Source: an uncultured Candidatus Binatia bacterium
Lineage (GTDB): Bacteria; Desulfobacterota; Binatia; Bin18
Assembly (NCBI GenBank): GCA_965243735.1
Contig: CBDEVZ010000008.1
Coordinates: 1,624,302 to 1,688,301, forward strand
DNA: 64,000 nt
Direction: 5' to 3'
The first letter of the stretch is position 1. Every line of letters begins with the position of its first letter. Under the pieces are notes generated by a model. It saw nothing but the letters and a program-made list of their open reading frames with translations, was not told the DNA's origin and searched no databases. Below are positions 11,280 to 57,764 of the stretch, in pieces. Both the position numbers and the translations under genes were made by a program.

Positions 11280-11285
11280 GCCCCG

Positions 11286-11586: not shown

Positions 11587-11706
11587 GCCCCGCCGGGGGC
11601 AGTCACCACCTACTCGGGCCTCTTTTTTCCCATTTTTCGTTTTTTCTTGTCCTTTCTACCCATCTGGGCAGCGATATTTTCATACCGATGTGGTGTGGGC
11701 AGCAGA
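11587..11706 (+). promoter_or_regulatory. Post-stop module M2: hairpin GCCCCGCCGGGGGC (11587-11600), CT tract, palindrome CTACCCATCTGGGCAGCG (11656-11673), GTGTGGGCAG box (~11694)
   Basis: Member of the conserved module family described for M1. Confidence 0.4.
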
Positions 11707-11748
11707 ACTCTTCGCTTGGTGTCCGCTTGGGCTTCGGAGTTGGCTGAT

Positions 11749-19100: not shown

Positions 19101-19230
19101 CGCCGGTCTCGCACTCTTCCGGGGCGGGTGCGGCCTGTTCGGCCTTCTTTTTTCTCGTGGTCCTGTTTTTTTGGTCTTTGCTGCCCATTTAGGCAGCGCA
19201 TTTCTCCTCCCAATCGAGTACAGGCAGGGA
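19101..19230 (+). promoter_or_regulatory. Post-stop module M3: weak hairpin + T-tract (19141-19180), palindrome CTGCCCATTTAGGCAGCG (19181-19198), GAGTACAGGCAG box (~19216)
   Basis: Conserved module family. GCGTATGCGGACGGAGCCTGACC (~19290) also recurs after gene 1 (~4835). Confidence 0.4.
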
Positions 19231-19329
19231 AGCGGATGCCGGGGGCCGGCCCGTCGGCTGCCCCCGCCGCGCACGCGACAGGACAGATGCGTATGCGGAC
19301 GGAGCCTGACCACCCCCTAACCCCCCCCG

Positions 19330-19545
19330 TTGGTCCGCGTGGCCGCCTTGGTCCTGCTCCCTCTGGCGCTTCTGGCAGCCGGAGGCGGTCCGGTGTTTGG
19401 TCAAGGCGGGACGTCGTGTCCGGGCGGCACCGACCCGACTCCGACGGCCGTGCCGGTCACGACGGTCCCCATTGAGGTCACCTCAACGACCGCCGCCGAC
19501 TTCGTGCTCTACGTGCCATTCGACGTGGCCGGCACGGAGCTGTAG
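19330..19545 (+). CDS. Small (71 aa) putative secreted protein (signal peptide VRVAALVLLPLALLAAGGGPVFGQ)
   Basis: ORF with TTG/GTG start lying between module M3 and the next giant gene. Classic n-h-c signal region. No recognisable RBS and no homolog recognised. Confidence 0.25.
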   Translation: MVRVAALVLLPLALLAAGGGPVFGQGGTSCPGGTDPTPTAVPVTTVPIEVTSTTAADFVLYVPFDVAGTEL

Positions 19546-22958: not shown

Positions 22959-23579
22959 ATGGTACGAGTCTGGTGGTTCGTTTCATGTGTTGCTACCCTG
23001 ATCCGGCCTGTCCGGCGCATGTGTCTGGCCGTCACGGTGGCGGTGCTGACTACGTTGGTCCCGCCCCCGTCCGAGGCCCAGTCCCCGGTTCTCTTTACCT
23101 CGGTCAATGAAACGCCGCCGCCCGGCCCGCTCGGCACCGAGACATTGCGCAGCCGGCTGGTGACCATGGACCTCGGGCAAGTCCAGCACGCCCGGGCTGC
23201 CGCCGCCACGGCGTCCGGCCAGCCTCCGCAGACCAGAGACACGTCCGGGCGTACAGACAAATCCAGCGCGGCGCCCGCCCCAGGTACGCTCCTGACCCTT
23301 AATCTGTTTGACGACGTGGTGGTCACGGGCGTGGTGGAGCGAACCGCGCCGACGTTTTCGGGGGGCTATTCCGTGGCGGGCCACCTGGTCGAAGAGCCGC
23401 TCGGCACCCTGACCCTGGTGGTCAACGGGGAGACGGTGGTGGGCACGGTACGGATGTTGGGGGAGACCTATCAGATCCGCTCGGTGGGAGGCGGATTGTA
23501 TACCATCAGCGAGGTGAAGGAGCACCCGCTCAACTGTGGGGTTGAGGGGCCCCATTCTGAGACGGACCATCAGCATTGA
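22959..23579 (+). CDS. Small secreted propeptide-like protein (paralog of 11749..12054) with C-terminal ...PLNCGVEGPHSETDHQH; translationally coupled to the downstream metzincin
   Basis: Signal peptide (MCLAVTVAVLTTLVPPPSEA). ~55-aa C-terminal block conserved with the first small ORF. Its stop TGA 23577-79 overlaps the TTG start 23576 of the next gene. Confidence 0.55.
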   Translation: MVRVWWFVSCVATLIRPVRRMCLAVTVAVLTTLVPPPSEAQSPVLFTSVNETPPPGPLGTETLRSRLVTMDLGQVQHARAAAATASGQPPQTRDTSGRTDKSSAAPAPGTLLTLNLFDDVVVTGVVERTAPTFSGGYSVAGHLVEEPLGTLTLVVNGETVVGTVRMLGETYQIRSVGGGLYTISEVKEHPLNCGVEGPHSETDHQH

Positions 23580-26500: not shown

Positions 26501-29500
26501 GGCAGCATCTATGCCGACTGGAACGTGGACCTGGACGGCGATACTACGACCGACGACCCCTGGGACTTCGGCACGGCCAGTCAGTACCCGGCGCTCCGCG
26601 TGGACTTTGACGGTGATGATACGGCAACCTGGGAGGAGTTCGGCCAGCAACTCCGCGAAATCCCGACCCTGACCCCCGACACCTCGACGGTGGGTCAGGT
26701 AGACTTGAGCTGGACGGCGGTCACGAACTCTGCGGGCTCGGCGGCTGTGACCTACACCGTCATGCGCGGCGACACTCCCATCGCCGAGGACCTCAGCACG
26801 ACGACCTACACCGATACCGATGTGACATCGGGGAGCGAATACACCTACCAGGTGATCGCCCTGGTCGACGGCGGGGAGGCTACGCGCAGCGCCCGGCTGG
26901 CGGTGACCGCGACCGCGAACCAGAAACCGGCGTTCGATGAAGGCGACAGCGCCATGCGCAGCGCGGACGAGAACACGGCCTCGGGTGTCAATATCGGGGA
27001 CCCGGTGGCAGCCACCGACATCGACGACACCAGTCTGATCTACACGCTGGGCGGGACGGACGCGACCTCTTTCGACATCGTCTCGACCACCGGACAGTTG
27101 CAGACCAAGACGGCCCTGAACTACGAGGCCAAGCGTCGCTACACGGTCAGCATCTCGGTCCGGGACGGCAAGAACAACGACGGCGAGGCCGACATGACCA
27201 CGGACGACACCATCACCGTGACCATCGATGTCGGCAACCTGGACGAAGCGGGCACGGTGACGCTCTCGGGGACTCCGGCACAGGCAGGGCGGCAACTGAC
27301 CGCGACGCTGAGCGACCTCGACGGCGGTCTGAGTGGCATCTCCTGGCAGTGGGAGCGGTCCAGCGACCAGAGCAACTGGACCGACATCACTGGGGAGACA
27401 TCCACTCAATACACGCCAGTAGCGGGCGACATGGGGGATTATCTCCGGGCCACGGCACGCTATACCGATGGCCAGGGGTCCGGGAAGAGCGCGGCGGCGG
27501 TGACGGCCCAGGTTCAGGCCGCGCCGGTGGTGGAACTGAGACTGTCGCCGCCTCGGATTGATGAGGACGGGGGGACGAGCACAGGGGTGAGCAGGGTCAC
27601 GGCGCATCTGCTGAACAATCGGACCTCACTCGCAAAGACGACCGTGCGCGTAACAGCCACGGCCCTCGCGCCGGCTCAGGCGGGGGATTTTACCCTCAGC
27701 GGCAATCAGCTGACGATCGCGGCAGGGGCATTGGCGAGCACTGAAACGGTAACGATTACCGCTAGAAACAACAATGTGGACGCCCCGGACAAGACGGTCA
27801 CGGTGAGTGGGCTGGCGACCAACTCTGATGGCGTCACCGGCCCGGCCTCGGTGGACCTGACGATCACGGACGACGACCCAGCCCCGAGCGTAGAACTGGT
27901 GCTGTCGCCCGCCCAGATCAGCGAGAACAACCAAGTGAGCACGGTGTCGGCGCGGCTGAGCCATCCGTCGAGCGCGGATACGACCGTGACCGTCTCGTCG
28001 CAGGCCGTGAGCCCGGCAGTGGCGGGCGACTTCATGCTGAGCACAAACACCACGTTGACCATCACGGCAGGGGCAACGGCAAGCAGCGGCACCGCTGTCA
28101 CGCTGACCTCGGTGGATAATTCCACCGACGCCCCGAACAAGCAGGTGACGGTAAGCGGGACGGCGACGAATACGCACGGTATCGCCGGAAACCCGGATAA
28201 TGCCACGCTCTTGATCACCGACGACGAGGGGGCGCCGAGGGTGACACTGACGTTGTCGGAGACGCAGATCGATGAGAGCGGTGCGGATAATAGCGCCACG
28301 CTGGCGGTGACCCTGAGCCATGCGTCGAGTGCGGCGACGACGGTGACGGTCTCGACAGACCCGGCGGAGGCCGTCACACTCAGCCCAAACCCATTGACGA
28401 TCTCGGCAGGGAACACCGAGGGCACAGTGACGCTGACGGCAGTGGACAACGAGATTGATGGGCCGGAGACCAAGCGGGTAACTATCTCGGCGGAGGCGGA
28501 GAACGACCAGGGGGTCACGGACCCGGCCAATAAGACGCTGACGATTGCAGACGATGACAATCCGCCGGTGGTGACGCTGGAGCTGTCGGCTACTCCGATT
28601 GATGAAAACGGTGGGCAGAGCACGCTGACGGCGAGCTTGGACCGGGCATCGAGCCAGCAGATCGTGGTGACGGTGGCGACAGCGACGGAATATGCCTTGA
28701 GTACGCCCCGCACCCTGACCATCCCGGCGGGGAAGACAGCGAGCGAGGGAAACACGGTCACGCTGACGGCCAAGGACAACAACATCGACGCGGCGGACGC
28801 GGAGATCACGGTGGAGGGGACGGCCAACCTGAGTGGGCTGACAGTGACGGGGGTGGAGCTGACCATCACGGATGACGATACGCGCGGGGTGACGGTCAGC
28901 GAGAGCACGCTGTCGATCAAGGAAGGGCAGACCGACACCTATACGGTGGTGTTGGACTCCCAGCCGACGGCGACAGTAACGGTGACGCTGGCCGTCACGC
29001 AGACTGATGACGCCGTGGGCACCAATCAGGCGAGTCTGACGTTCGCGCCGGGGAACTGGAACACGGCCCAGACGGTCACGGTGCGGGCGGCCGACGATAC
29101 GGTGGAGAACATCCCTCCCAAGACAGCGACGATCACGCACACGGTGACGGGCGGCGACTACGGAGAGAACAACGTCCGGGCGGCCTCTGTATCGGTGACC
29201 GTGACCGACGACGAGAGTGCGTCCACGGCGGTAACCCTGCGGGTGAACCCAGAGGCGGTGACCGAGGGGAGCAGCAACCGGACAGTGACCGTGACCGGCG
29301 AGTTGGATGGGGCACCGCGCGGTACTGACACCACGGTGACTATCTCGGTCACATCCGGGAGCGGGGACGAGGCAGCCGTGGAGGGCACCGATTTTGACGA
29401 GGTGGCGGACTTCACGCTGACGATCAAGGCGGGTCAGCCGAGCGGGATGGCAACCTTCACCCTGACGACGGAGAACGACACTATCGATGAGCCGGACGAA

Positions 29501-31786
29501 ACGGTGACGGTAGAGGGGACGGTGACGGGGCTGACCGTGAACCCGACGACGCTGACCATCACGGACGATGACCCGCCACCGACAGTGACGCTGGAGGTGG
29601 CGGACAATTCGATCACCGAGAGTGGCGCGGATAACAACACGACAGTGAGGGCGACGCTCAGTCATCCGTCAAGCGAGGTGACGACGGTGGAGGTGACGGC
29701 TACGGCCGTGCCGCCGGCGGTGGACGGTGACTTCACCCTGAGCGGAGCGAGTTTGACCATCCCGGCCAGGCAGACAGAGAGCAGCGGGAGCGCGACGCTG
29801 ACGGCGCAGGATAACGCGGAGGATGAGGTGGACAAGCGGGTGCGCGTGACCGCGCGGGCGACCAACACCCAAGGGGTCAGGTCGACGACTGTGGCAGCGG
29901 TCACCGTGACGATCACCGATGACGACCCACCTAAGGTGGAGGGCGAGATCGCTCCAACGTACGTGGAGGGCGGGACGGGGCCGGTAGCGACGTACACGGC
30001 GAGTAACCCGGCCAATGTCAGGCTGACGTGGTCGCTGGATGGCACTGACAAAGACACCTTTACCATCCCGAACGGGGTGCTGCGCTTCAAGCAGTCCCCG
30101 GACTATGAGGATCCGAACAACTCGGACAAAGAATATGCGGTCACCGTGCAGGCCTCCGACGGGACGGTCACCGGCGAATTGCCGGTCCTCGTCACCGTTG
30201 AGGATGCATTGGGCACAGTCCGTTTGTCCGCGTCACAGCCCAGGGTTGGGTCCTCGCTGACGGCGACAGTGAGTGACCCGGACGGCGTGGATACGGCCAC
30301 CACCGAGTGGTGCTGGGAGCGCTCCCTCCTCCCGAGCCCCCAGGCGGATACCACTGAGGCCGACTGCACCCCGACCACGGCGGCGACTTATACGCCGGTA
30401 GACGACGACCTCGGCCACTATCTGCGGGCCACGGTGACCTATACCGACAACCAGGAGACACCCAAAAGAGAGGCCGTAGAGGCGGTGACGACGAACACGG
30501 TCTTGGCGCGAGGCGGCGGCGGTAGGGATGGTGGAGGCGGGGGCGGCGGAGGTGGAGGTGGGGGCGGCGGAGGTGGGGGCGGTAGAGGCGGCGGCAGTGC
30601 CCCTGCCTGTACGCAGGACGATGTGCACGGCAACAGTCCGACCCAGGCCACTGACATTGCGCTGTCTGCTGTGACTGCCGGAGCGATCTGTCCCGCTGGC
30701 GACGTGGATTATTTTGCCGTGACCGCTCCCGGCCGGGGCCTCCTCTTTGTGGAGACCTTCGGTGGGGCGAGTCCTCGCGGCACGCTCTGGCAGGACGGCG
30801 CGGTCTTGGCGTCCGGTCCCCGCCCGGATACTCGGCTGGGCGCCCGCGTGGAGGCCGGCCCAGTCGTCGTAGCGCTGCAAGGGCAGGGGGGAGCGACTGG
30901 GGCATATGAGGTGATCATCACCTTCGTGCAGGGCTTTCTGGAGAACCCTGGCTCCGCCTCGTTCCAAAGTGGGGTGGGGGTGCTGTCGGGCTGGGTGTGT
31001 GAAGCGGACATGGCGGAGATCGAGTTGAACGGGGTGCCGCAGGAGGCGGCGTATGGAACGGATCGGCTGGACACAGCCGGCGTCTGTGGCGACGTGGACA
31101 ATGGGTTTGGCCTCTTGTTCAACTGGAACCTGTTAGGCGACGGCGTGCATGCCATCGTTGCTCTGGTCGATGGGGTGGAGTTAGGCCGGGTGACGGTGAC
31201 GGTGACCACGCTGGGCGCGGAGTTTCTGCGGGGCGTGGCAGGGGAGTGTGTGGTGGCCGACTTCCCGAGTGCGGGCGAAAGTGTGCGACTGGTATGGCAG
31301 GAGGCACAGCAGAATTTCGTGCTGGCCGAGGGCGCTGCGCCGACAGGGGCTTCCCGCTCCGGGACGCCCGGCGTCGGGGTTCTGGAGAACCCGAGTCCAC
31401 GCTCGTTTCAGAGTGGGATCGGCGTGCTGTCGGGCTGGGTATGCGAGGCGGAGGAAGTCGTTATTACGATTGGCGACCTGGCCCCACAAGTAGCCGGCTA
31501 CGGCACCGAGCGCCTGGACACCCAAGGCGTGTGTGGGGACACGGCCAACGGCTTCGGCTTGCTGTTCAACTGGAACCTGCTGGGCGACGGAGCGCACGAA
31601 GTGGTAGCCAGCGTAGATGGGGTCGAGTTGGGCCGGACCACGGTACGGGTGACGACCTTGGGCGAGGAGTTCGTGCGGGGCGCTGTGGGGGAGTGTGTGG
31701 TGGCGGACTTCCCGCATCCGGGCGCGACGGTAACGCTCACCTGGCAGGAGTCCAGCCAGAACTTTGTGATTACCCAAGTGGAGTGA
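23576..31786 (+). CDS. Giant secreted metzincin paralog (2736 aa): reprolysin-like protease (HELGHIMGLLHD), Calx-beta, Ig-like, GLUG-like repeats, FN3, cadherin, ~10 Calx-beta/Ig-like modules, long poly-Gly linker, PPC, tandem novel CTD (A 30931-31350, B ~31375-31783)
   Basis: Same domain order as 12051..19100. DVDYFAV PPC motif. CTD-B is ~95% identical in nucleotide sequence to the CTD-B of gene 38292..41519. Confidence 0.85.
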   Translation: MIPLPSWSAAPHLKRLLLAALLLLPLLSGGMVHAQSVIDVAVFYTTAAKDAQGGTEQIETKIDELVVAANMAYTDSDVNQTIKLVAAEEVAYPETGSIRIDVERLRDPSDGYLDEVHTIRDRVHADIVILLRAQWDGEISGVAYTMGTESTTHAPNAFGVSIVDASTFAHELGHIMGLLHDRYEACQHNTATPQCRSSVVAPYAYGYVNQAAFESGAATSKRWRTIMATNKQCADNSPSFNCDRVLYFSNPDNSYPDADGDPMGVSGTQDTTDIDGPADAAQALDDTRDTVADFREGRAVQVSFAAGAYAVTEGGSVTVTVQLDVAPGRTLDMPIALTATSPDGAWPGDYSLPASVTFSASQTTQTFTFRATQDTRQEDEETVILGFGTPLPAGVSVGSQATATVTLTDNDTVAAAPSVSTVEIVSDPGAAYAAGEEIVVAVVFTKPISVTGVPSIELTVGTNTRTALCQDVASEVLTCTYTVVADESDTDGVSVVANSLALNGGTIQDEETTPQDAALTHDAVAADSAHTVDGDTPDLESATVDEDTVTLTYDEALDETSVPRANAFTVTAGSTTVLTTSVEVSGEVVTLDLVSRVAHDDSVTLTYSPSTGTPSLRDAAGNAAATLSSYALTNNTPQPVYDTDDDRLIEIATLAQLNAVRHDLDGDGTPTTTGAADYAAAFPDATRVVCGVTSGGCAGYELTVDLDFDTSGDGQIDADDEYWNSGAGWVPIGTASDRFRTTFEGNGRAIRHLFIKRSSSDNVGLFGYTGLSSVIRHARLRDVAVQGKRGVGGLAGTNQGSVTENSATGRVEGGSGSVGGLVGINFGEIHASYATVRVVGGFHAGGLVGQVSGDIFASYATGRVSGTSGVGGLGGRMATDGQGNIQASYATGSVSGNNHVGGLIGSFAAGTIHASYATGRVAGNGSAVGGLVGESPDDPTITASYWDTRTSGRTNSAGGDGQTTTALQTPTGYTTGSIYADWNVDLDGDTTTDDPWDFGTASQYPALRVDFDGDDTATWEEFGQQLREIPTLTPDTSTVGQVDLSWTAVTNSAGSAAVTYTVMRGDTPIAEDLSTTTYTDTDVTSGSEYTYQVIALVDGGEATRSARLAVTATANQKPAFDEGDSAMRSADENTASGVNIGDPVAATDIDDTSLIYTLGGTDATSFDIVSTTGQLQTKTALNYEAKRRYTVSISVRDGKNNDGEADMTTDDTITVTIDVGNLDEAGTVTLSGTPAQAGRQLTATLSDLDGGLSGISWQWERSSDQSNWTDITGETSTQYTPVAGDMGDYLRATARYTDGQGSGKSAAAVTAQVQAAPVVELRLSPPRIDEDGGTSTGVSRVTAHLLNNRTSLAKTTVRVTATALAPAQAGDFTLSGNQLTIAAGALASTETVTITARNNNVDAPDKTVTVSGLATNSDGVTGPASVDLTITDDDPAPSVELVLSPAQISENNQVSTVSARLSHPSSADTTVTVSSQAVSPAVAGDFMLSTNTTLTITAGATASSGTAVTLTSVDNSTDAPNKQVTVSGTATNTHGIAGNPDNATLLITDDEGAPRVTLTLSETQIDESGADNSATLAVTLSHASSAATTVTVSTDPAEAVTLSPNPLTISAGNTEGTVTLTAVDNEIDGPETKRVTISAEAENDQGVTDPANKTLTIADDDNPPVVTLELSATPIDENGGQSTLTASLDRASSQQIVVTVATATEYALSTPRTLTIPAGKTASEGNTVTLTAKDNNIDAADAEITVEGTANLSGLTVTGVELTITDDDTRGVTVSESTLSIKEGQTDTYTVVLDSQPTATVTVTLAVTQTDDAVGTNQASLTFAPGNWNTAQTVTVRAADDTVENIPPKTATITHTVTGGDYGENNVRAASVSVTVTDDESASTAVTLRVNPEAVTEGSSNRTVTVTGELDGAPRGTDTTVTISVTSGSGDEAAVEGTDFDEVADFTLTIKAGQPSGMATFTLTTENDTIDEPDETVTVEGTVTGLTVNPTTLTITDDDPPPTVTLEVADNSITESGADNNTTVRATLSHPSSEVTTVEVTATAVPPAVDGDFTLSGASLTIPARQTESSGSATLTAQDNAEDEVDKRVRVTARATNTQGVRSTTVAAVTVTITDDDPPKVEGEIAPTYVEGGTGPVATYTASNPANVRLTWSLDGTDKDTFTIPNGVLRFKQSPDYEDPNNSDKEYAVTVQASDGTVTGELPVLVTVEDALGTVRLSASQPRVGSSLTATVSDPDGVDTATTEWCWERSLLPSPQADTTEADCTPTTAATYTPVDDDLGHYLRATVTYTDNQETPKREAVEAVTTNTVLARGGGGRDGGGGGGGGGGGGGGGGGGRGGGSAPACTQDDVHGNSPTQATDIALSAVTAGAICPAGDVDYFAVTAPGRGLLFVETFGGASPRGTLWQDGAVLASGPRPDTRLGARVEAGPVVVALQGQGGATGAYEVIITFVQGFLENPGSASFQSGVGVLSGWVCEADMAEIELNGVPQEAAYGTDRLDTAGVCGDVDNGFGLLFNWNLLGDGVHAIVALVDGVELGRVTVTVTTLGAEFLRGVAGECVVADFPSAGESVRLVWQEAQQNFVLAEGAAPTGASRSGTPGVGVLENPSPRSFQSGIGVLSGWVCEAEEVVITIGDLAPQVAGYGTERLDTQGVCGDTANGFGLLFNWNLLGDGAHEVVASVDGVELGRTTVRVTTLGEEFVRGAVGECVVADFPHPGATVTLTWQESSQNFVITQVE

Positions 31787-31897
31787 GCCCCACCGGGGTG
31801 AATCCGCGCGGCTTGTTCGCATTTTCTTTCATTTTCTCGGTCCTCTCTGCCCATCTGGGCAGCGTATTTTTCCTGACGATCATGTACAGGCAGTGAA
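31787..31897 (+). promoter_or_regulatory. Post-stop module M5: hairpin, CT tract (31811-31846), palindrome CTGCCCATCTGGGCAGCG (31847-31864), TGTACAGGCAG box (~31884)
   Basis: Conserved module family. Confidence 0.45.
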
Positions 31898-34800
31898 CCT
31901 CTTGCCTGGTGCAGGCAACTCGCTTGTGAGGGGCAGGAGAACTGAACCCGGCCGCAGGGCAGGGAAGAGTGACCATGCGGATGGCCCGGCAATTTTTTCT
32001 ATGCGAACAGGCCATTATGGCAGACAGGGCGCGGAGAAGCGCTTGTTTCTCCTGGTCAGAATTTTTCAAACCGAGACACTCTCTCCATTCCTCCGGCGTT
32101 CCGGTAAGAGACTGCCGCTGCGGCTCGCTTCCCGCAGCGTTCTGGCGCTCCTTGCCGGCATCCTGACCCTGCTGCCTCCGGTCGTTCTGGCCCAGGCGGA
32201 CGACCCGGCGCTGAGCGTGGACATCTGCGACCGCACCGAACAGGTGAGGTCGAGGATACTGCTGAAGGTCTCCGCCACCGACTGCACCGATGTTTCGACG
32301 AGTGAGCTGGCAGCGATCACCACGCTGAGTGCGACCTCGAACGGCGTCCTCTCCTTGCGAGCTGGTGATTTCGCCGGGCTGACCGGTCTGAAGAAGCTGT
32401 ACTTGGCAAGAAATCATCTGATCGGTCTGCCGGCGGATATCTTCGCCGAACTGTCCAGTCTGACGGAGTTGGACTTGGCAAGCAATCGACTGATCAGTCT
32501 GCCGGCGGGCCTCTTCGATGCCCTGTCCAGTCTGGGGAAACTGAACCTGTCAAACAACCCCGACCTGTCCTACTCGCCCTATCTGCTGAGCCCATTGACC
32601 AGCCTGACACAGCTCAACGGTACAGCGTACACCTCCCCGGCGCCTCCCGGCGCCCCGACTGGCCTGACGGCAGCGTTCACCGACGAACACATCGCCCTCA
32701 GTTGGACCTCCCCGGCAACCGGCACCCCTACCAGCTACCGGATTCTGCGCCAAGCGGGCACCGATCCACAGGCAGTCTATGTCGCGGACACCTACGCTGC
32801 CCACCGGGACGCCGTCACGTATACCGACACCGGCGTGACCGCTGGTGAGACCTATACCTACCAGATTCAGGCCCTGAACGCGGGAGGCGCCAGTGCCGGG
32901 TCCAACCTGGCGGTCGCAGTCGTGGACATCTGTGGCCGCACCGAGTCCGTGCGCACCACAATACTCGCGGTGGTCACCGCTACCGACTGCGCGCTCGTGT
33001 CCATTAGCGAACTGGCAGCCATCACCAGCCTGGACCTGAGCGGCGCGTCCATCACCACGTTGCAAGCGGGTGATTTTGCCGGAATGACCGGCGTGACCAC
33101 GCTGGACCAGCCTGACGATCTCGACGCGTCGGCCTACTCGCCCTATCTGCTGAGCCGGCTGACCAGCCTGACGCAGCTCAATGGGGCGTCGTACACCCGT
33201 CCGGCGCCCCCCGGCGCCCCGACTGGCCTGACGGCAACGTTCACCGACGGACACATCGCCCTCCGCTGGACGGCCCCGGCGACCGGCGCCCCCACCAGCT
33301 ACCGGATTCTGCGCCAAGAGGGGGTCGGTTCGCAGGTAGTGTATGTGGCGGACACCTACGCTGCCGGCGGGACGGCGGTGACCTACACCGACACCGGCGT
33401 GACCGCTGGTGAGACCTACTGGTATCAGGTTCAGGCGCTGAACGCGGGGGGCGCCAGCGCCGGGTCCAACATGGCGGCAGCGAGAGCGTTCGTGCCGGTG
33501 AACATCTGTGGTCGCACCAGCCGGATGCAGAGGGCGATACTGGCCAAGCCGGTGGTGATCGCCACCGACTGCGCCCTGGTCTCACCGAACAAGTTGGCCG
33601 CCATCACCAACCTGGAACTGGGAAATGGCTACCTGCACTCGTTGCGCTCGCGTGATTTCGCTGGCATGACGGGCCTGATGAGGTTGGACTTGCACGGCAA
33701 TCGTATAACTCGGTTGCCGGCAGGCGTCTTCGACGAGCTGCCCAACCTCACGTATCTGAATCTCGACGCTACTAACCTGATGGCGTTGCCGGCGGGGGTG
33801 TTTGACAAGCTGACGAAGCTGACCACGCTGGACCTCTGCGCTAATGAACTGAGGACGTTGCCGGCGGGGATATTTGACAAGCTGACGGAGCTGACCACCC
33901 TGGAACTATACCTCAATGATCTGAGGACATTGCCGGCGGGTATCTTCGACCGCCTGCCCAACCTGACCAAGCTGTATCTCTACAGAAATGAGCTAACGTC
34001 GTTACGGGCGGGGGTGTTTGACAAGCTGATGAATCTGAGCAGCTTGCTGCTACACGAAAATGATCTGACCAGTCTGCCGGAGGGCATCTTCGACGAACTG
34101 TCCAGTCTGAGAGAGCTGAACTTGGCAGAAAATGACCTGACCAGTCTGCCGGCAGGCATCTTCGATGAACTGTCCAACCTGACGGAGCTGAACCTCGTAG
34201 ACAACTCCAACCTGTCCTACTCGCCCTATCTGCTGAGCCCGCTGACCAGCCTGACGCGGCTCAGCTATGCCCATTACACCCGTCCGGCGCCCCCCGGCGC
34301 CCCGACTGACCTGACGGCAACGGTCCGAGCCGCTGGTATCCACCTCAGTTGGACCGCTCCGGCGACCGGCACCCCCACCAGCTACCGGATTCTACGCCAA
34401 GCGGGCACCGATCCGCAGGAAGTCTACGTCGCGGACACCTACGACACCGGCGGGACGGCGGTGACCTACACCGACACCGCTGTGGCCGCCGGCGAGACCT
34501 ATACCTACCAGGTCCAGGCGCTGAACGCGGGGGGCGCCAGCGCCGGCTCCAACGAGGCTGAAGCGACCATGTCTTCCGTGGCAAACATTTGCGACCGTAC
34601 CGGGCCAGTCCTGACTGCCATACTGGCGCAGGTCTCCGGCACCGCCTGTGGTCGCGTGCTAACGAGCCAACTGGCAGCGATCACCAGCCTGGACCTGAGC
34701 GGAGCGTCCATCGCCGCGTTGCAAGCGAGTGATTTCGCCGGGCTGTCCGGCCTGACCAGCCTGGGTCTGAGCGACAATACTCTCGGTGCGTTGCCGCCGG

Positions 34801-36032
34801 GCGTGTTTGACCCCCTGTCCAGTTTGACAACGCTGGACTTGAGCGACAATGCCTTGACCGCGTTACCGGCGGGCGTCTTCGATGCCCTGTCCAGCCTGAC
34901 GACGCTGAACCTGGCCAACAACTCCGCTCTGTCCTACTCGCCCGAAGCGTTGAGCCCATTGACCAGCCTGACGCGCCTCAACGGGGAATCGTACACCCCT
35001 CCGGCCCCCTCAAACGCCCCGACTGACCTGGCGGCGACTATCACCACCGGTGGGATCGCCCTCCATTGGACGGCCCCCACGACCGGGGTGGTCACCAGCT
35101 ACCGGATTCTGCGTCAGGAGGGGGCCGGTCCACAGGAAGTCCATGTCGCGGACACCTACGCGAGCGGCGGGGCGGCGGTGACCTATACCGACGCCGACAT
35201 CACGGTCGGCGAGACCTACCGGTATCAGGTTCAGGCGCTGAACGCGGGCGGGGCCAGTCCCAAATCCAACGAGGCGGTTGTGGCGCTGACTGCGGTGGTG
35301 GACCTCTGCGACCGCACAGAGCCCGTGCAGACCGCCGTCGTGGAGGCGGTCCACACCATCACCTGCGCCCCCTTTTCAGCTGTCAAGCTGGCGGCGATCT
35401 CCATCCTGGACCTGAGCGGGCAACACATACGCGCGTTGCGAGCGAATGATTTCGCCGGCATGTCCGGCCTGACGGTGCTGAATCTGCGCGAGACCGATGT
35501 AGAGTCGTTGGAGGCGGGGGTGTTCGACCCCCTGCCCGACCTGATCACGCTGGATCTGCACGGGAATCAGCTCGAGTCGTTACCGGGCGGAGTGTTCGAC
35601 GCACTGTCCCAACTGGCCACGCTGGACTTGAGCAACAATCTCCTGCGCGGGTTACCGGCAGGCGTGTTTGACTACCTGTCCGCGCTCACGACGCTGGACC
35701 TGAGCAACAATAACCTCAGTGCGCTGCCGCCGGGCGTGTTTGACCACCTGTCCAGTCTGACCACGCTGGACTTGAGCAACAATGCGCTGGCCGCACTGCC
35801 GGCGGATCTCTTCGATGCTCTGTCCAATCTGGCCACACTGGACCTGAGCAACAATACGCTAACCGCGCTACCCGCGGGCATCTTCGATGTCCTGTCCAAT
35901 CTGACCACGCTGCGTCTCAACAATAACCCCGACCTGTCCTACTCGCCCGAAGTGTTGAGTCGGCTGACCCGCCTGACGCGCCTCAACGGCGCCCCGTATA
36001 CCCCCCCCAGCGCTCCCGAGCACCCCGACTAG
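31893..36032 (+). CDS. Secreted LRR + FN3 modular protein (six LRR-block/FN3 units); N-terminal portion of a frameshifted gene that continues in ORF 36076..38169
   Basis: Signal peptide (LASRSVLALLAGILTLLPPVVLAQA); probable start ATG 32001. LRR consensus L..L.L..N.L..LP.G.F. FN3 (APPGAPTGL...YRILRQ...YQVQALNAGGAS). The ORF ends just after a C8 tract (36001-36008). The +1 frame continues the same FN3 repeat into the next ORF. Confidence 0.75.
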   Translation: MNLLPGAGNSLVRGRRTEPGRRAGKSDHADGPAIFSMRTGHYGRQGAEKRLFLLVRIFQTETLSPFLRRSGKRLPLRLASRSVLALLAGILTLLPPVVLAQADDPALSVDICDRTEQVRSRILLKVSATDCTDVSTSELAAITTLSATSNGVLSLRAGDFAGLTGLKKLYLARNHLIGLPADIFAELSSLTELDLASNRLISLPAGLFDALSSLGKLNLSNNPDLSYSPYLLSPLTSLTQLNGTAYTSPAPPGAPTGLTAAFTDEHIALSWTSPATGTPTSYRILRQAGTDPQAVYVADTYAAHRDAVTYTDTGVTAGETYTYQIQALNAGGASAGSNLAVAVVDICGRTESVRTTILAVVTATDCALVSISELAAITSLDLSGASITTLQAGDFAGMTGVTTLDQPDDLDASAYSPYLLSRLTSLTQLNGASYTRPAPPGAPTGLTATFTDGHIALRWTAPATGAPTSYRILRQEGVGSQVVYVADTYAAGGTAVTYTDTGVTAGETYWYQVQALNAGGASAGSNMAAARAFVPVNICGRTSRMQRAILAKPVVIATDCALVSPNKLAAITNLELGNGYLHSLRSRDFAGMTGLMRLDLHGNRITRLPAGVFDELPNLTYLNLDATNLMALPAGVFDKLTKLTTLDLCANELRTLPAGIFDKLTELTTLELYLNDLRTLPAGIFDRLPNLTKLYLYRNELTSLRAGVFDKLMNLSSLLLHENDLTSLPEGIFDELSSLRELNLAENDLTSLPAGIFDELSNLTELNLVDNSNLSYSPYLLSPLTSLTRLSYAHYTRPAPPGAPTDLTATVRAAGIHLSWTAPATGTPTSYRILRQAGTDPQEVYVADTYDTGGTAVTYTDTAVAAGETYTYQVQALNAGGASAGSNEAEATMSSVANICDRTGPVLTAILAQVSGTACGRVLTSQLAAITSLDLSGASIAALQASDFAGLSGLTSLGLSDNTLGALPPGVFDPLSSLTTLDLSDNALTALPAGVFDALSSLTTLNLANNSALSYSPEALSPLTSLTRLNGESYTPPAPSNAPTDLAATITTGGIALHWTAPTTGVVTSYRILRQEGAGPQEVHVADTYASGGAAVTYTDADITVGETYRYQVQALNAGGASPKSNEAVVALTAVVDLCDRTEPVQTAVVEAVHTITCAPFSAVKLAAISILDLSGQHIRALRANDFAGMSGLTVLNLRETDVESLEAGVFDPLPDLITLDLHGNQLESLPGGVFDALSQLATLDLSNNLLRGLPAGVFDYLSALTTLDLSNNNLSALPPGVFDHLSSLTTLDLSNNALAALPADLFDALSNLATLDLSNNTLTALPAGIFDVLSNLTTLRLNNNPDLSYSPEVLSRLTRLTRLNGAPYTPPSAPEHPD

Positions 36033-36075
36033 CCTGACGGCGACCATCACTAGCGGCGGGATCGCCCTGCACTGG

Positions 36076-38169
36076 ATGGCCCCGGCGACCGGGGTGGTCA
36101 CCAGCTACCGGATTCTGCGCCAAGCGGGCGCCGGTCCACAGGAAGTCTATGTTGCGGACACCTACGCTGCTGGCGGGGCGGCGGTGACCTACACCGACGC
36201 CGACATCACGGTCGGCGAGACCTACCGGTATCAGGTTCAGGCGCTGAACGCGGGCGGAACCAGTCCCCCGTCCAACGAAGCAGTCCTGACTGCCACGAAT
36301 GCCATTTTCAGGGTGACCAGTGCCGGGCCGTTCACGGTCCAAGAAGGAACGACCGCCGTCGCCACGCTCACGGCCTCAGTCTCCAGCACGTCGAGCAACT
36401 CGCTGACCTGGTCTATTCCGTCCGGTCCAGCCGGCGGGGCGGACGGGCACGCGTTCTCGCTCAGTTCCTCCGGCAGCTTGACTTTCAGAGCCGCGAAGGA
36501 TTTCGAGGCGCCGGACGACGCCGACACGGACGGGATCTACGAAGTCACTGTGCAGGTAGACGGTGACGCGGAGGCAGCCCTCGCAGAGGCAACCCTCCGG
36601 GTGACTTTAGACAACGTTGATGAGCCGGCGGTGATCACCTTGTCAACGACGCAGCCGCAGGTTGGGCGTGCCCTGACCGCTACTCTGACCGATCCCGACG
36701 GCACCGTTTCCGGCATTACATGGACGTGGACGTCTTCCGCAGACCACACAAGCTGGACCCCGATCCCAGGAGCTGATTCGGCCGTCTACACACCGCAGGT
36801 CACCGACTTGGGGCACTACCTGCGGGTCACGGCCTCGTACATTGATGATGTCTTTGGGGCCGGCAGGAGCGCCCCGGCGGTGCTGACCGACATCGTGCAG
36901 GTCGCCCCGGTGCGGCGTCCCCCAGAGGGAGGGGGTGGCGGAGGGGGTAGAGGCAACGGCGGCGGCGGTCCTGCCTGCACCCAGGACGACGTGCACGGCA
37001 ACACCGCCGCCCAGGCGACTGTCATTGCCCTGGACACGCTGACGGCGGGGGCCATCTGTCCGGCCGCTGACGTGGATTATTTTACGGTCACCATCCCCGA
37101 GCGAGGGCTCGTCTTTGTCGAGACCACCGGCACGGGGCCGCTCCGGGGGACGATCTTGCAAGATGGCGTGGTCTGGGCATCCGGCCCGATAGGCGGAAGG
37201 CAGGCGCGCGGCCGGCTGGGGGTGCTCGTCCAGGCTGGCCCCGTGGTCGTGGCTGTCCAAGGCCAGGGGAGCGCGACCGGGGCGTACACCCTCGTCGTCA
37301 CCTTCGTGCGGGGCACTCTGGAGAACCCGAGGCCAGCGTCGTTCCAAAGTGGCGTCGGAGTGCTGTCAGGCTGGGTGTGTGAGGCCGAAGAGGTCGAGAT
37401 AGAGATTGTAGGGACTGGGCGGCAAGGGGCGGCGTACGGCACTGAGCGGCTGGACACGGCCGGCGTGTGTGGCGACACGAATAATGGCTTTGGCTTGTTA
37501 TTCAACTGGAACCTGCTGGGCGGCGGCGAGTATGAAGTGGTGGTCTTCGTCGATGGCCTCGTATTGGGCTGGGCAACAGTGCGGGTGACAACCCTGGGGG
37601 AGGAGTTTCTGCGAGACGTGGCAGGGGAGTGTATGGTGGCCGACTTTCCGAGCGCGGGCGAGAGCGTGCGGGTGGTGTGGCAAGAAGCGCAGCAGAGCTT
37701 CGTGCTGGCCGAGGGCAGCGCGCCGACCGGGGCTTCCCGCTCCGGGATAGCTGGGGTGGGCTTTCTGGAGAACCCGAGTGCCAACTCGTTTCAGAGCGGC
37801 ATCGGGGTGATTTCGGGCTGGGTGTGTGCGGCGGATGAGGTGATGATCACGATCGGGGACTTGGCCCCGCAGATGGCCGGCTACGGTACGGAGCGCCTGG
37901 ACACGTTGGCTGTGTGTGGGGACACGGACAACGGCTTCGGCTTGCTGTTCAACTGGAACCTACTGGGGGACGGGGAGCATGAAGTGATCGCCACGGTGGA
38001 TGGGACCGAGTTGGCCCGCACCACGGTGCGGGTGACGACGCTGGGGGAGGAGTTCGTACGGGACGCCGTGGGGGAATGCACGGTGGCGGACTTCCCGCAT
38101 CCGGGCGCGACGGTCACGCTCACCTGGCAGGAGTCCAGACAGAACTTTGTGATTAGCGAGATTGAGTGA
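36076..38169 (+). CDS. C-terminal portion of the LRR-FN3 gene: FN3, cadherin-like, Gly linker, PPC, tandem novel CTD (A 37311-37730, B 37759-38166)
   Basis: Its frame is open from ~36025 and encodes PTSLTATITSGGIALHWMAPATGVVTSYRILRQ, which continues the FN3 repeat of the upstream ORF. DVDYFTV PPC motif. The CTD tandem is the same as in the other giants. Confidence 0.75.
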   Translation: MAPATGVVTSYRILRQAGAGPQEVYVADTYAAGGAAVTYTDADITVGETYRYQVQALNAGGTSPPSNEAVLTATNAIFRVTSAGPFTVQEGTTAVATLTASVSSTSSNSLTWSIPSGPAGGADGHAFSLSSSGSLTFRAAKDFEAPDDADTDGIYEVTVQVDGDAEAALAEATLRVTLDNVDEPAVITLSTTQPQVGRALTATLTDPDGTVSGITWTWTSSADHTSWTPIPGADSAVYTPQVTDLGHYLRVTASYIDDVFGAGRSAPAVLTDIVQVAPVRRPPEGGGGGGGRGNGGGGPACTQDDVHGNTAAQATVIALDTLTAGAICPAADVDYFTVTIPERGLVFVETTGTGPLRGTILQDGVVWASGPIGGRQARGRLGVLVQAGPVVVAVQGQGSATGAYTLVVTFVRGTLENPRPASFQSGVGVLSGWVCEAEEVEIEIVGTGRQGAAYGTERLDTAGVCGDTNNGFGLLFNWNLLGGGEYEVVVFVDGLVLGWATVRVTTLGEEFLRDVAGECMVADFPSAGESVRVVWQEAQQSFVLAEGSAPTGASRSGIAGVGFLENPSANSFQSGIGVISGWVCAADEVMITIGDLAPQMAGYGTERLDTLAVCGDTDNGFGLLFNWNLLGDGEHEVIATVDGTELARTTVRVTTLGEEFVRDAVGECTVADFPHPGATVTLTWQESRQNFVISEIE

Positions 38170-38300
38170 GCCCCACCCCGCGCTTCTGTCGGGGCGGAGC
38201 TTGCCTGCCCGGTTCTCGTTTGTTCCTCCTTTGTCCGTTTTTTTGCCTTTCCTGCCCATTTGGTCAGCGATAGACGCCGTGGCGCTCTTCTATGCTCGTG
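38170..38300 (+). promoter_or_regulatory. Post-stop module M6: CT tract (38210-38251), palindrome CTGCCCATTTGGTCAGCG (38252-38269), TTCTATGCT box (~38286)
   Basis: Conserved module family. Lies immediately upstream of the next giant gene, whose likely true start is ATG 38340. Confidence 0.4.
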
Positions 38301-41300
38301 GTCGGAGCGGAGCACATGCACGCACGAGGAACAAGAAGAATGCTGCTGCTGCTGGTTCTCCCGGCGGTGCTGTCATTGTGTACAGGTGGTCACGTCCAGG
38401 CTCAGGAGCCCGCCAGCGTCCCGGGGGTCGAGAAGGTCGCTTTCACGGACGGGATAGCTCGTTACAAACTGAACGACATCATCGAAGTGACGGTGACGTT
38501 CAGCGAGGTCGTAGCCGTTACCGGCACACCGCAAATCGACCTGACCATCGGCTCCATGACCCGCCAAGCCGACTATCAAAGCGGCCCGCCCTCGACAGCC
38601 CTGGTCTTCCGCTACACCGTGATGGACACCGATGAAGACACCGACGACGACGGGGCCACGGTTGACGCCAACGGTCTGAAGTTGAACGGCGGCAGCATCA
38701 AAAAACACAATACCGACATTGATGCCGACCTGACGCACGAGGCGCATGTGGAGCCGAAGTATATTAACACGGTCGACGGCATCACGCCGGTCCTGTCGAC
38801 CGCAGCGGCGTACGGCGACCAACTCGTGCTGACCTACGACGACACACTCTGGCCATATTCGCGGACGCCCGCCAGCGCCTACGTCGTGAAGGTGAACAAT
38901 GCGGTGCGCGGTGCCAGCACCCCCTTGATAAGCCACCGTTTCGTCACGCTCACCCTCGCTTCGGCGGTGCTGCCAAGCGATCAGGTGACGGTGAGTTACA
39001 TCGTTGGAGAGCATCCCGTCCGGGACGAGGCGGGCAACCAGGTAGCGGCGCTGGTCAACCAGGCAGTGACGACCTCCGCTCCGTATGTCAGCAGTCTGGA
39101 GATCAGCTCGTCGCCGGCGGCCCGCCGAACCTACGCCGGGGGGGAAGTGATCGAACTCAGGGTGACGTTCAGCGAGAGCGTCACGGTCACGGGCGCCCCT
39201 CGGCTCTTACTCACGTTCGAAAGTACTGGCCCCTATGAACGAGCCGCGCCCTACGTGAGTGGGTCGGGGACGACCGTCCTGGTGTTCAAGTACACTGTTG
39301 CTGAGGGGCTCGACCGCTTCTTTGTGTGGGCTCTGCGCCTGCTTGGGCGTTGGCGGGAGGAGCTGACGGTCGGAGACGAAGACCCCGACGGGTTGAGCAT
39401 CGCCGTCGACGCGCTGGACCTGAACGACGGGACCATCCGCGACAGCGACAACCAGGACGCGCTGCTGGTCCTCGACGAACTGACGGATGTCGGGGGACAC
39501 AAGGTGGATGGTCTCTGGCCACAGTCGGACGTGCTGAATGATCCGTATGTCGTCAATGGGGCGACGCTGATGTTGCACTATGAGGAAATGCTGGACGAGA
39601 ACTCGGTCCCAGCCGGCGATGCGTTCGCGGTGACCGCCGGGGGAACGATGCACGCAGTCACCGACGTTTCGATAGACGACAGGACGGTCACACTGACACT
39701 CGACACTCCGGTTGGAGCAAACGACGCGGTACGGTTGAGTTATACGGCGCCGACTGGAACGGAGGCAATGCCCGTCCAGGACTTGGTCGGAAACGATGCG
39801 CAAGATTTTACCGACCGGCTGGTGAGGCCGCCATTGGGTATTAGCGTGTCTTTTGGTGCTGACCGGTACACCGTGGACGAAGGGCAGGCCGTAGAGGTCA
39901 CGGTCCGGCTGAGTGCAGACCCGGAGCGCCGGGTGGAGATTCCGTTGGCGCTCACACCTGGGGACAATGTAGAGGCGTCTGATTATACGGGCGTCCCGCA
40001 CACGGTTGTGTTCAAGAGCGATGAGCGTGAACAGTCCTTTTCCTTCAGTGCCCTCGCCGATCAGGAGAATGAGCAATCCGAGACCGTCACCATCGGCTTC
40101 GATGCGTCGCTACCGACCGGGATGGAGGCGGGGAGTCCCGCCACCACGGTCGTGACAATCGTGCAGCCGCCTCAGCAAGAGGGGAACGGCCGCGACGAGG
40201 GCAGCAGCAATACGGCGCCGAGCGGGCAGCCGACCATTGCCGGCACGGAGCAGGTGGGCGAGACACTGACGGTGGACGTGAGTGGGATTACGGATCCGAA
40301 CGGACTCACGCAGGCCAGCTTCAGATACGAGTGGGTGCGGGTGGCCGGCGGCAGCGAGACGACTATAGCGGGCGCGACGGGTAGCGCCTACACGGTAACG
40401 GCCGCAGATGTGGGCAGCCGGCTCAAGGTGCGGGTGGGCTTCACGGACGATAACGGGACAGACGAGGCAGTGGAGAGTGCGCTGACGGGAGTAGTGGCGG
40501 CGGCGCCGGCGCCAGAGAACGGGGGCAGCGGGGGCGGCGGGGGCGGCGGCAGGGGCAGTGGAGGCGGCGGTAGTAGCGGCGGGGGCAGTGGAGGAAGTGG
40601 GGACGGCGGCAGTGGCGGTAGCGGCAGCAGTGGGGGCGGCGGGGGGTCGTCAGCGGAGCCGGTCGGGTACTTGGAGAACCCAGGGGACAATTCCTTTCAG
40701 AGCGGGCTTGGGGTGATTTCGGGCTGGGTGTGTGCGGCCGATACCGTCGAGATTGAACTCAACGGGGTGCCGCGCGTGGCGGCGTACGGGACCGAGCGGT
40801 TGGACACCCAAGGCGAGTGCGGGGACACGGACAACGGCTTTGGGTTGCTGTTCAACTGGAACCTGCTCGGGGATGGCGAGCATGAGGTCGTGGCCTACGC
40901 GGATGGCATTGAGTTGGGCCGTGTCACGGTGACGGTGATCACGCTGGGCGCGGAGTTTCTGCGGGGCGTGGCAGGGGAGTGTGTGGTGGCCGACTTCCCG
41001 AGTGCGGGCGAAAGTGTGCGACTGGTATGGCAGGAGGCGCAGCAGAATTTCGTGCTGGCCGAGGGCGCTGCGCCCACGGGCGTGACCCAATCCGGGACGC
41101 CCGGCGTCGGGGTTCTGGAGAACCCGAGCCCACACTCCTTTCAGAGTGGGATTGGCGTGCTGTCGGGCTGGGTCTGCGAGGCGGAGGAAGTCGTTATTAC
41201 GATTGGCGACCTGGCCCCACAAGTAGCCGGCTACGGCACCGAGCGGCTGGACACGTTGGATGTCTGCGGGGACACCGACAATGGCTTCGGCTTGCTGTTC

Positions 41301-41519
41301 AACTGGAACCTGCTGGGCGACGGGGCGCACGAAGTGGTGGCCAGCGCAGATGGGGTCGAGTTGGGCCGGACCACAGTGCGGGTGACGACCTTGGGCGAGG
41401 AGTTTGTGCGGGGCGCTGTGGGGGAGTGTGTGGTGGCGGACTTCCCGCATCCGGGCGAGACGGTGACGCTCACCTGGCAGGAGTCCAGCCAGAACTTTGT
41501 GATTACCGATCTGGAGTGA
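38292..41519 (+). CDS. Giant secreted protein: signal peptide, multiple Ig-like (SwmB/SbsA-like, GTP.L.L..G...Y.SG motif) domains, Calx-beta, long Gly/Ser linker, tandem novel CTD (A 40663-41090, B 41108-41516); no PPC
   Basis: 1075-aa ORF. Signal peptide MLLLLVLPAVLSLCTGGHVQA begins at the third in-frame ATG (38340). Over 170 nt of its CTD-A are identical to gene 23576..31786. Confidence 0.85.
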   Translation: MLVVGAEHMHARGTRRMLLLLVLPAVLSLCTGGHVQAQEPASVPGVEKVAFTDGIARYKLNDIIEVTVTFSEVVAVTGTPQIDLTIGSMTRQADYQSGPPSTALVFRYTVMDTDEDTDDDGATVDANGLKLNGGSIKKHNTDIDADLTHEAHVEPKYINTVDGITPVLSTAAAYGDQLVLTYDDTLWPYSRTPASAYVVKVNNAVRGASTPLISHRFVTLTLASAVLPSDQVTVSYIVGEHPVRDEAGNQVAALVNQAVTTSAPYVSSLEISSSPAARRTYAGGEVIELRVTFSESVTVTGAPRLLLTFESTGPYERAAPYVSGSGTTVLVFKYTVAEGLDRFFVWALRLLGRWREELTVGDEDPDGLSIAVDALDLNDGTIRDSDNQDALLVLDELTDVGGHKVDGLWPQSDVLNDPYVVNGATLMLHYEEMLDENSVPAGDAFAVTAGGTMHAVTDVSIDDRTVTLTLDTPVGANDAVRLSYTAPTGTEAMPVQDLVGNDAQDFTDRLVRPPLGISVSFGADRYTVDEGQAVEVTVRLSADPERRVEIPLALTPGDNVEASDYTGVPHTVVFKSDEREQSFSFSALADQENEQSETVTIGFDASLPTGMEAGSPATTVVTIVQPPQQEGNGRDEGSSNTAPSGQPTIAGTEQVGETLTVDVSGITDPNGLTQASFRYEWVRVAGGSETTIAGATGSAYTVTAADVGSRLKVRVGFTDDNGTDEAVESALTGVVAAAPAPENGGSGGGGGGGRGSGGGGSSGGGSGGSGDGGSGGSGSSGGGGGSSAEPVGYLENPGDNSFQSGLGVISGWVCAADTVEIELNGVPRVAAYGTERLDTQGECGDTDNGFGLLFNWNLLGDGEHEVVAYADGIELGRVTVTVITLGAEFLRGVAGECVVADFPSAGESVRLVWQEAQQNFVLAEGAAPTGVTQSGTPGVGVLENPSPHSFQSGIGVLSGWVCEAEEVVITIGDLAPQVAGYGTERLDTLDVCGDTDNGFGLLFNWNLLGDGAHEVVASADGVELGRTTVRVTTLGEEFVRGAVGECVVADFPHPGETVTLTWQESSQNFVITDLE

Positions 41520-57570: not shown

Positions 57571-57764
57571 TCTCCCCCGTCTCACTCTCAAGCGTATGGC
57601 TCGATAGGTCGGGCCTGCGGTTGAATACCACAGTGGCGTGAGACGGAGGAGTAGCTACCCCCGTCGCCGCGAATAGACCGCACAATCTCAGCCATACGCT
57701 GTGAGTGGGACACGGCCCGGCAACTCTCACCCGTCGCGGCCGTGTCCTGCCACAGGAGGCCGCT

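Follow-up and report, generated by a model that had tools for sequence, protein, structure and literature searches.

A run of eight cytosines splits a predicted giant LRR-FN3 surface-protein gene in the assembly of an uncultured Candidatus Binatia bacterium

We analysed a stretch of 64,000 nucleotides (nt) from an uncultured Candidatus Binatia bacterium (assembly GCA_965243735.1, contig CBDEVZ010000008.1, positions 1,624,302 to 1,688,301; hereafter the window), in which one gene, predicted from its sequence to encode a secreted eukaryotic-like surface protein of ~2,050 amino acids (aa), is divided into two open reading frames (ORFs) by a run of eight cytosines (C8) at 36001-36008. The upstream ORF, 31893..36032, contains most of the LRR and FN3 repeats, while the downstream ORF, 36076..38169, contains the remainder of the protein up to its C-terminus. 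If one C is deleted from the run, a single ORF of 2091 codons with no internal stop is obtained, which confirms the proposal, made in an earlier sequence-only reading of the window, that this run splits one surface-protein gene. As to its origin, we tentatively favor a recent, real and incidental slippage event at a hot spot created by the CCC-rich proline linkers of this protein, rather than an evolved switch. The lesion as such is of an ordinary, known kind, and its wider interest lies in recurrence, as breaks are present in three of the four related lineages and fall exclusively at poly-C runs situated in homologous linkers.

Inspection of the sequence shows that positions 36000-36009 read A-CCCCCCCC-A, i.e. 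A-C8-A. The frame-0 ORF (31893..36032, 1379 codons) reads ...LNGAPYTPPSAPEHPD followed by a stop, with the C-terminus ...RLNGAPYTPPSAPEHPD; after the run there are seven sense codons, yielding the peptide tail ...YTPPSAPEHPD, and then a premature TAG at 36030-36032, in agreement with the earlier observation that the ORF terminates shortly after the run. The +1 frame reads ...IPPPALPSTPTSLTATITSGGIALHWMAPATGVVTSYRILRQ... (...IPPPALPSTPTSLTATITSGGIALHWMAPATGVVTSYRILRQAGAGPQEVYVADTY...), corresponding to the start of an FN3 domain, and frame translation confirmed that ORF 36076..38169 belongs to this same frame. The last stop in the +1 frame is the TGA at 35974-35976, and the frame is thus open from 35977 to 38169, and not merely from ~36025, as had been thought; both frames are open in the overlap between the flanking stops, 35977..36032, and the shift must fall inside it. 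The in-frame state of the run is C7 (ACC CCC CCA GCG, T P P A), and the junction of the C7-corrected ORF, YTPPALPSTPTSLTATITSGG, has the same length as its counterpart in unit 4, YTPPAPSNAPTDLAATITTGG. Consistent with the earlier statement that preceding units are 1 nt shorter, the segment from TAY to CCGACT measures 34 nt in unit 5 versus 33 nt in unit 4. By itself, the C8 run is unremarkable: there are 20 matches to C or G runs of at least 7 in the 64 kb of the window, versus 30.1 +/- 7.8 in shuffled sequences, i.e. no enrichment, and proline codons in these ORFs are 31% CCC and 56% CCG. What is not due to chance is that a conserved coding frame of 714 codons resumes exactly at the C8.

The domain order of the reconstituted protein is as follows: a signal peptide, five units each composed of an LRR block and an FN3 domain, two immunoglobulin (Ig)/cadherin-like domains, a Gly-rich spacer, a PPC-like domain, and a tandem C-terminal domain of 135 aa. 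All of these are on the + strand. A signal-peptide-like segment, RRSGKRLPLRLASRSVLALLAGILTLLPPVVLAQA, is located at 32094..32198, as judged by eye and with no predictor, and profile searches against Pfam yielded LRR_8 (E = 3e-143) and fn3 (E = 1e-32 over four stretches upstream of the shift, and 6e-9 downstream); it is this combination of LRR and fn3 profile matches with a leader that places the product among eukaryotic-like surface proteins. The LRR N-cap motifs (I/L-C-D/G-R-T) at aa 111, 346, 538, 899 and 1138 define five LRR blocks, and the six LRR-FN3 units counted previously should be reduced accordingly. ORF 31893..36032 comprises the leader, all five LRR blocks and four complete FN3 domains. 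The downstream frame indeed continues the FN3 repeat, as had been claimed, except that this repeat occurs upstream four times and not five, the fifth FN3 being the one that is cut by the shift. The C8 lies within the Pro-rich linker (YTPP...) that connects LRR to FN3 in unit 5 (35997..36029), which has homologs at 32628, 33192, 34275 and 34992, and the linker remainder plus the fifth FN3 occupy 36009..36276 in frame +1. In unit 2 (32928..33500), the LRR block is strongly shortened (...TTLDQPDDLDASAYSPYLLS...), so that only 564 nt separate the linkers of units 1 and 2.

Downstream of FN3-5, two Ig-like domains are found at 36292..36909. For the first, which contains a cadherin-type DNVDEP motif, the “cadherin-like” label holds only in the form of a Pfam Big_9 match (E = 3e-5, above the curated cut-off), and the second gives a weak match of the SCAB-Ig/A9 type; homologs of this two-domain region are present in many metagenome-assembled genomes (MAGs) of sponge type. 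A Gly-rich spacer, GGGGGGGRGNGGGG, follows at 36928..36969. The next domain, 36973..37314, resembles PPC by motif only (DVDYFTV...GAYTLVV, by eye), and its earlier designation as PPC was not upheld by Pfam, where PF04151 gave no match to residues ACTQDD...FVRGT even at E <= 10. The two C-terminal copies, 37315..37713 and 37762..38169 (the latter including the stop codon), form a genuine tandem repeat in tblastn, as predicted, although no Pfam or NCBIfam family could be matched to them. The first possible start in frame +1, the ATG at 36076, is inside the FN3 domain and is accompanied neither by a Shine-Dalgarno-like motif nor by a signal peptide. A scan for terminator consensus found no terminator-like site in 36032-36076, between the two ORFs, and one terminator-like hairpin, a consensus match only, at 38192..38210, 3′ of the gene, which fits a single transcription unit spanning 31893-38169.

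Comparison with the neighboring genes indicates a single ancestral gene. A tblastn search with the 135 C-terminal residues showed that the tandem domain ends all seven giant + strand ORFs of the window (59..4642, 4887..11279, 12051..19100, 20249..22456, 23576..31786, 36076..38169 and 38292..41519), and one further single copy was found in ORF 57705..58847. Six ORFs, namely five giant ORFs and ORF 57705..58847, begin with signal-peptide-like leaders, and the leaders of sister genes look similar by eye, ending in AHAQS, VHAQS or VQAQE. The LRR-FN3 ORF is the only ORF in the window that has such a leader but lacks the tandem C-terminus, from which we infer that it once had one; ORF 36076..38169, in turn, has the C-terminus, starts inside FN3, and has no leader of its own.

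Intact relatives provide evidence for a single ancestral ORF across the junction. A protein search with the C7-corrected junction region retrieved, in addition to the two halves from the NCBI record of the window itself (P0003, at 100%, and P0004, a protein of 1329 aa that equals ORF 31893..36032 read from the TTG at 32043), two ENA proteins, P0001 (83% identity) and P0002 (86%), both of which read through the junction in frame, at equal length and with 100% coverage. The nearest relative in a scan of GTDB species representatives, the locus designated L003, from an uncultured Candidatus Binatia MAG, shows 86% aa identity; its intact 2192-codon ortholog (5300..11878; 80% identity to the C7-corrected protein in one alignment), together with the two further orthologs that are in frame at the junction, bears out the expectation of an intact gene of ~2,050 aa. 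In all three orthologous loci, L001, L002 and L003, the junction reads TAC ACG CCC CCG GCA (T-P-P-A), in the form ACGCCCCCGG with no pure C run, while in the window it reads TAT ACC CCC CC[C] AGC G. Alignment to the orthologs is best with one extra base in the C run and three substitutions, and it was one of these substitutions, ACG to ACC, that created a pure C run in the window. Nucleotide identities of about 86% between the window and the others, 92% between L001 and L003, and 95% between L002 and L003 show that these are distinct lineages. The same strain was not encountered elsewhere, since the junction-spanning protein search returned only P0003, P0004 and the orthologs at 83-86%; a short junction query gave a single match, at 65%, a scan of JGI metagenomes found no ortholog, the best match being partial, at 60%, and the GTDB representatives scanned did not include the source genome. 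For annotation, the two public coding sequences, P0003 and P0004, should be treated as one gene, either frameshifted or in need of correction.

Breaks at poly-C runs are not confined to the window. In L001 (ERZ25068633), the break lies in the linker of unit 3, at a C7 (L001:9889) that would have to be C8 to be in frame, as is the case at L001:8239, and it separates gene 7518..9914 from gene 10001..13846. L002 (ERZ23491076) has two breaks, one in the linker of unit 1 and one in that of unit 2, each at a C10 run (L002:916 and 1482) in place of an in-frame C8; the spacing between these two linkers is short in L002 as well (566 nt). Correction of run length alone yields an ORF of 2109 aa in L001 and an open frame of 1525 codons in L002. 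In L003, the gene contains no C run of at least 7 and is intact. Overall, over four lineages, 4/7 of the poly-C runs of at least 7 in this gene are out of frame, versus 0/64 elsewhere (Fisher p = 4e-5, or p = 0.004 once the window site, as the ascertained one, and one of the two L002 sites are excluded). In-frame and out-of-frame runs are thus mixed in these genes in the absence of any other lesion, and the assembly quality is low for two of the three broken loci.

The part of the gene downstream of the shift shows no sign of release from selection. Its ratio of nonsynonymous to synonymous substitution rates (dN/dS) versus the orthologs is 0.25-0.26, as compared to 0.375 for the upstream part, and is no higher than the values of 0.28-0.44 obtained among orthologs intact at the junction; none of its 714 codons is a stop. 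Relaxed selection downstream of the shift was therefore discarded, and the lack of decay leaves three options: the lesion arose very recently, it can be reversed, or it does not exist in the DNA. This absence of decay is exactly what an artefact would also give, and it is not the only point that weighs against slippage in the DNA itself. The length of the C8 is known from the assembly consensus alone, and indels in homopolymers are the kind of error that typically remains in long-read assemblies (PMC9262707). Related MAGs named in this style originate from sponge projects that used PacBio HiFi and metaMDBG, such as the one described in the Petrosia ficiformis data note, in which Binatia MAGs were assembled from PacBio HiFi reads with metaMDBG and annotated with Prokka (PMC12648040). 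Furthermore, the recurrence may itself be technical, since both of the other broken loci come from weak assemblies: the L001 contig is labelled 4x, which is probably its coverage, and L002 is a scaffold of 5.5 kb with identical flanks at its two C10 sites.

If the extra C were a consensus error in homopolymer length, the organism would have a C7 and an intact single gene. We regard this explanation as rather unlikely, although several points speak for it: the gain of one base in an 8-nt homopolymer is a classic long-read error class, the gene is otherwise perfect over the 2091 codons that open up once a single base is removed, Prokka, with which MAGs of this style are annotated, flags no pseudogenes, and the company of other broken orthologs is that of a 4x-labelled contig and a short scaffold. 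It is nevertheless weakened, as a generic error, by the state of comparable runs in the cluster. There are 13 G/C runs of at least 7 in the window, eleven of them inside giant ORFs, and all of the latter are in frame except for the one at 36001; the other ten are G7 or G8 runs, including four G8 (3413, 3742, 10044 and 10053). We also surveyed the window together with loci L001-L042 (887 kb) for a break signature, defined as at least 200 open codons ending just after a run combined with at least 200 codons in another frame starting just before it, for which the control rate at random positions is 0.44%. Only three sites exhibited it: the window site, L001:9889, and one G8 in L016, which lies antisense to a repeat protein and was dismissed as a chance match, leaving two true breaks of large ORFs. 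Extension of the survey to L043-L058 brought the total to 74 runs, of which 37 are spanned by long open frames. In addition, the repeat units flanking the C8 are only about 83-85% identical to each other, so that mis-placement of long accurate reads is an unlikely cause.

A second split gene in the cluster also speaks against a purely technical origin. A DUF285-repeat paralog, 19560..22456, has suffered a 1-nt deletion outside of any long homopolymer, leaving a 5′ ORF (19560..20309) with a signal peptide and DUF285-type repeats, and a 3′ ORF (20249..22456, + strand) that contains repeats from its first residue, followed by a PPC-like domain and the tandem C-terminal domain. Insertion of one base anywhere in 20236..20251 (sequence gaaatgaagccatg) restores an ORF of 965 aa. 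Although this is a single case, it favors real, ongoing decay in the cluster.

A different possibility is that the poly-C runs are maintained for slippage, so that the locus would switch between a full-length and a truncated, released form, or between ON and OFF, and the assembly would have caught an OFF majority. The gene would be a suitable candidate, as it encodes a surface protein of host-interaction type, belongs to a multigene family, and resides in a probably host-associated bacterium; run length does set the frame, as the C8 closes and a C7 reopens the 2091 codons; the out-of-frame runs in four lineages have run length as their sole lesion; purifying selection still acts on the downstream part; and C10 runs lie 5′ of giant ORFs in other sponge-type MAGs (L031 and L032). 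Against this, none of the three orthologs has the run at this site, long runs occupy different units in each lineage and are missing from the gene of the best-assembled relative, L003, and G/C runs show no enrichment in the window. The site is located two thirds into the gene, at about 1370 codons, rather than near its 5′ end, and C7/C8 is short by the standard of runs that switch at high rates. Since the linkers are repeats of each other, their shared CCC codons need no selection to explain them. We therefore consider an evolved phase switch improbable, and the least supported of the three causes named in the sequence-only reading. Still more doubtful is the broader idea that CCC-rich Pro linkers between LRR and FN3 in the eukaryotic-like proteins of sponge symbionts act as recurrent slippage switches, whose variants keep or lose the Ig-like stalk and C-terminal domains and are thus attached, or else released or absent. 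Giant surface-protein genes in sponge symbionts may even use homopolymer switching more generally, in view of the C10 runs upstream of giant ORFs in two Thermodesulfobacteriota MAGs.

Finally, the C8 could be functional as it stands, with two products resulting from a +1 ribosomal frameshift at CCC-CCC-C (tRNA-Pro) or from transcriptional slippage, in which case a junction-spanning peptide ..YTPPALPSTPTSL.. would be produced. CCC-C sites are known as shift-prone, the sequence ACC CCC CCC A permits perfect re-pairing of the P-site tRNA-Pro after a +1 shift, and a low-level full-length product is conceivable, as tRNA-Pro slippage could give traces of it. RNA-polymerase slippage, on the other hand, is documented mainly at runs of 9 or more A or T. 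The next codon, AGC, is neither a stop nor a rare codon, no Shine-Dalgarno-like stimulator is visible by eye, and, most importantly, the junctions of the orthologs are single-frame and have no run. As the shift site is not conserved, programmed recoding was rejected, and we view it as extremely improbable. Incidental slippage, held tentatively, thus stands at the head of our ranking, followed by assembly error, then by an evolved phase switch, and lastly by recoding.

Under incidental slippage, a synonymous G-to-C change would have converted the linker sequence ACG CCC CCG into a pure C7 run in the window lineage, and slipped-strand insertion of one C (C7 to C8) would then have shifted the frame, with translation ending 7 codons after the run. 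In Pro-rich linkers of this kind, C runs can readily arise and disappear again through synonymous change. The product of the C8 allele, if any, would be a secreted LRR-FN3 fragment devoid of FN3-5, the Ig-like stalk, the PPC-like domain and both C-terminal domains, and the downstream 697-codon ORF is probably silent, as it has no signal peptide and no ribosome-binding site. Reversion would be expected to occur at a rate well above that of point mutation, as for any indel in a run of 7-8 nt. The source bacterium is probably sponge-associated, judging from its relatives; the other loci in the GTDB scan, many of them with UUID isolate names, belong to taxa typical of sponge microbiomes, such as Poriferisodalis, Palauibacter rhopaloidicola and Dehalococcoidia.

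Two other arrangements in the cluster were evaluated as possible frameshifts. The ~200-aa ORFs that immediately precede the Reprolysin-type giant ORFs, in another frame (23016..23576 and 11884..12051), represent instead a conserved two-gene arrangement; in L003, the conserved ~200-aa ORF (12017..12640) overlaps the start of the giant ORF. ORF 59..4642 is not a split gene and simply runs off the window edge. Another C8 is found at 19321..19328, directly 5′ of a 71-aa ORF (19330..19545) with a signal-peptide-like start, and is crossed in a different frame by an ATG-initiated frame, 19128..19475; it may represent either a relic or a second start that depends on the run. Between ORF 4887..11279 and ORF 12051..19100, there is a 25-aa relic of the C-terminal domain (11509..11583) with 76% identity to the domain end, which suggests past gene turnover in the cluster. 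In the two Thermodesulfobacteriota MAGs, C10 runs lie 5′ of giant ORFs at L032 1567 and 1694 and at L031 7792, the two L032 copies being part of a duplicated ~127-nt element located ~85 nt ahead of the ATG that opens a frame of >4300 codons, and a Poriferisodalis MAG has a G8 just before a 2040-codon frame (L006 9920). The placement of these runs resembles that of phase-variation runs in promoters or 5′ untranslated regions.

The ~135-aa domain deserves a study of its own, as it represents a family that has no annotation but more than a thousand members in metagenomes. Its copies in the window, which are tandem in the seven giant ORFs and single in a 380-aa ORF, are located at 3791..4639, 10428..11276, 18249..19097, 21605..22453, 30935..31783, 37315..38166, 40668..41516 and, in the single case, 58416..58835, with the consensus LENP..SFQSGIGV.SGWVC...YGTERLDT..VCGDT.NGFGLLFNWNLLGDGEH...TTLGEEF.RG..GEC. 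A profile search recovered >1,100 proteins with this domain, nearly all from ENA, while no sequence match was found in Pfam, NCBIfam or PDB. AlphaFold2 models it as a beta-sandwich (predicted local distance difference test, pLDDT, 77), for which a Foldseek search against PDB gave no significant match. Its interpretation as a pure sorting tag was rejected, since many members are stand-alone proteins of 137-245 aa in ordinary or housekeeping neighborhoods.

If real, the lesion in the window would be a further example of homopolymer slippage truncating a surface protein of host-interaction type, this time in an uncultured lineage without genetics. If reads confirm the breaks in the related lineages as well, this would be, to our knowledge, the first hint that such symbionts vary their eukaryotic-like surface proteins by phase-variation-like slippage. 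Sponge symbionts carry eukaryotic-like proteins with LRR, FN3 and cadherin-like domains, and the LRR_8, fn3 and Big_9 repertoire of the gene described here, with its nearest relatives in MAGs of sponge-microbiome type, agrees with this pattern; the tandem 135-aa C-terminal domain shared by the cluster, in contrast, has no family assignment. In the poly-G/C contingency genes of Neisseria, Haemophilus, Campylobacter and Bordetella, slipped-strand phase variation produces mixtures of ON and OFF variants, and the runs tend to be longer, with a conserved position, genome-wide enrichment, a location near 5′ ends or in promoters, and demonstrable heterogeneity in cultures. The window gene resembles them in having a G/C homopolymer in a surface-protein gene that is one base out of frame and otherwise intact, with homologous runs in mixed frame states across related genomes, but it differs in run length, conservation of position, enrichment (as judged in 64 kb) and 5′ placement.

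As in long-read homopolymer errors, a one-base indel in an 8-nt run here results in a split gene call in a MAG-type assembly (PMC9262707), but comparable runs in the cluster and in 58 related loci are unbroken, and the breaks are concentrated in one orthologous gene. A more distant parallel is offered by Buchnera, in which, as cited in a study of Listeria (PMC2831843), poly(A) frameshifts in an AT-rich genome are rescued by transcriptional slippage at runs of A10 or longer; the likeness lies in homopolymer-frameshifted genes in a symbiont and their possible partial rescue, whereas there is no indication that RNA polymerase slips on a C8. The closest known counterpart is inlA of Listeria monocytogenes, which encodes an LRR surface protein and has undergone independent, recurrent frameshifts in an A7/A6 run, with reversion elevated about 1000-fold, to about 5.5e-7 (PMC2831843). 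Reversion was measured in inlA, while the window gene is known from its sequence only. The inlA poly-A tract is at codon 3 and its frameshift leaves an 8-aa peptide, while the poly-C tract described here is ~1370 codons into the gene and would leave a long secreted fragment, and the LPXTG of inlA is replaced by a tandem uncharacterized C-terminal domain. In both cases, however, an LRR surface protein with a C-terminal attachment region is truncated by the gain or loss of one base in a 7-nt coding homopolymer, and in both, other lineages carry an interrupted, “stabilized” form of the run: the A2GA4 allele in inlA (PMC2831843), and ACGCCCCCGG in the orthologs of the window gene.

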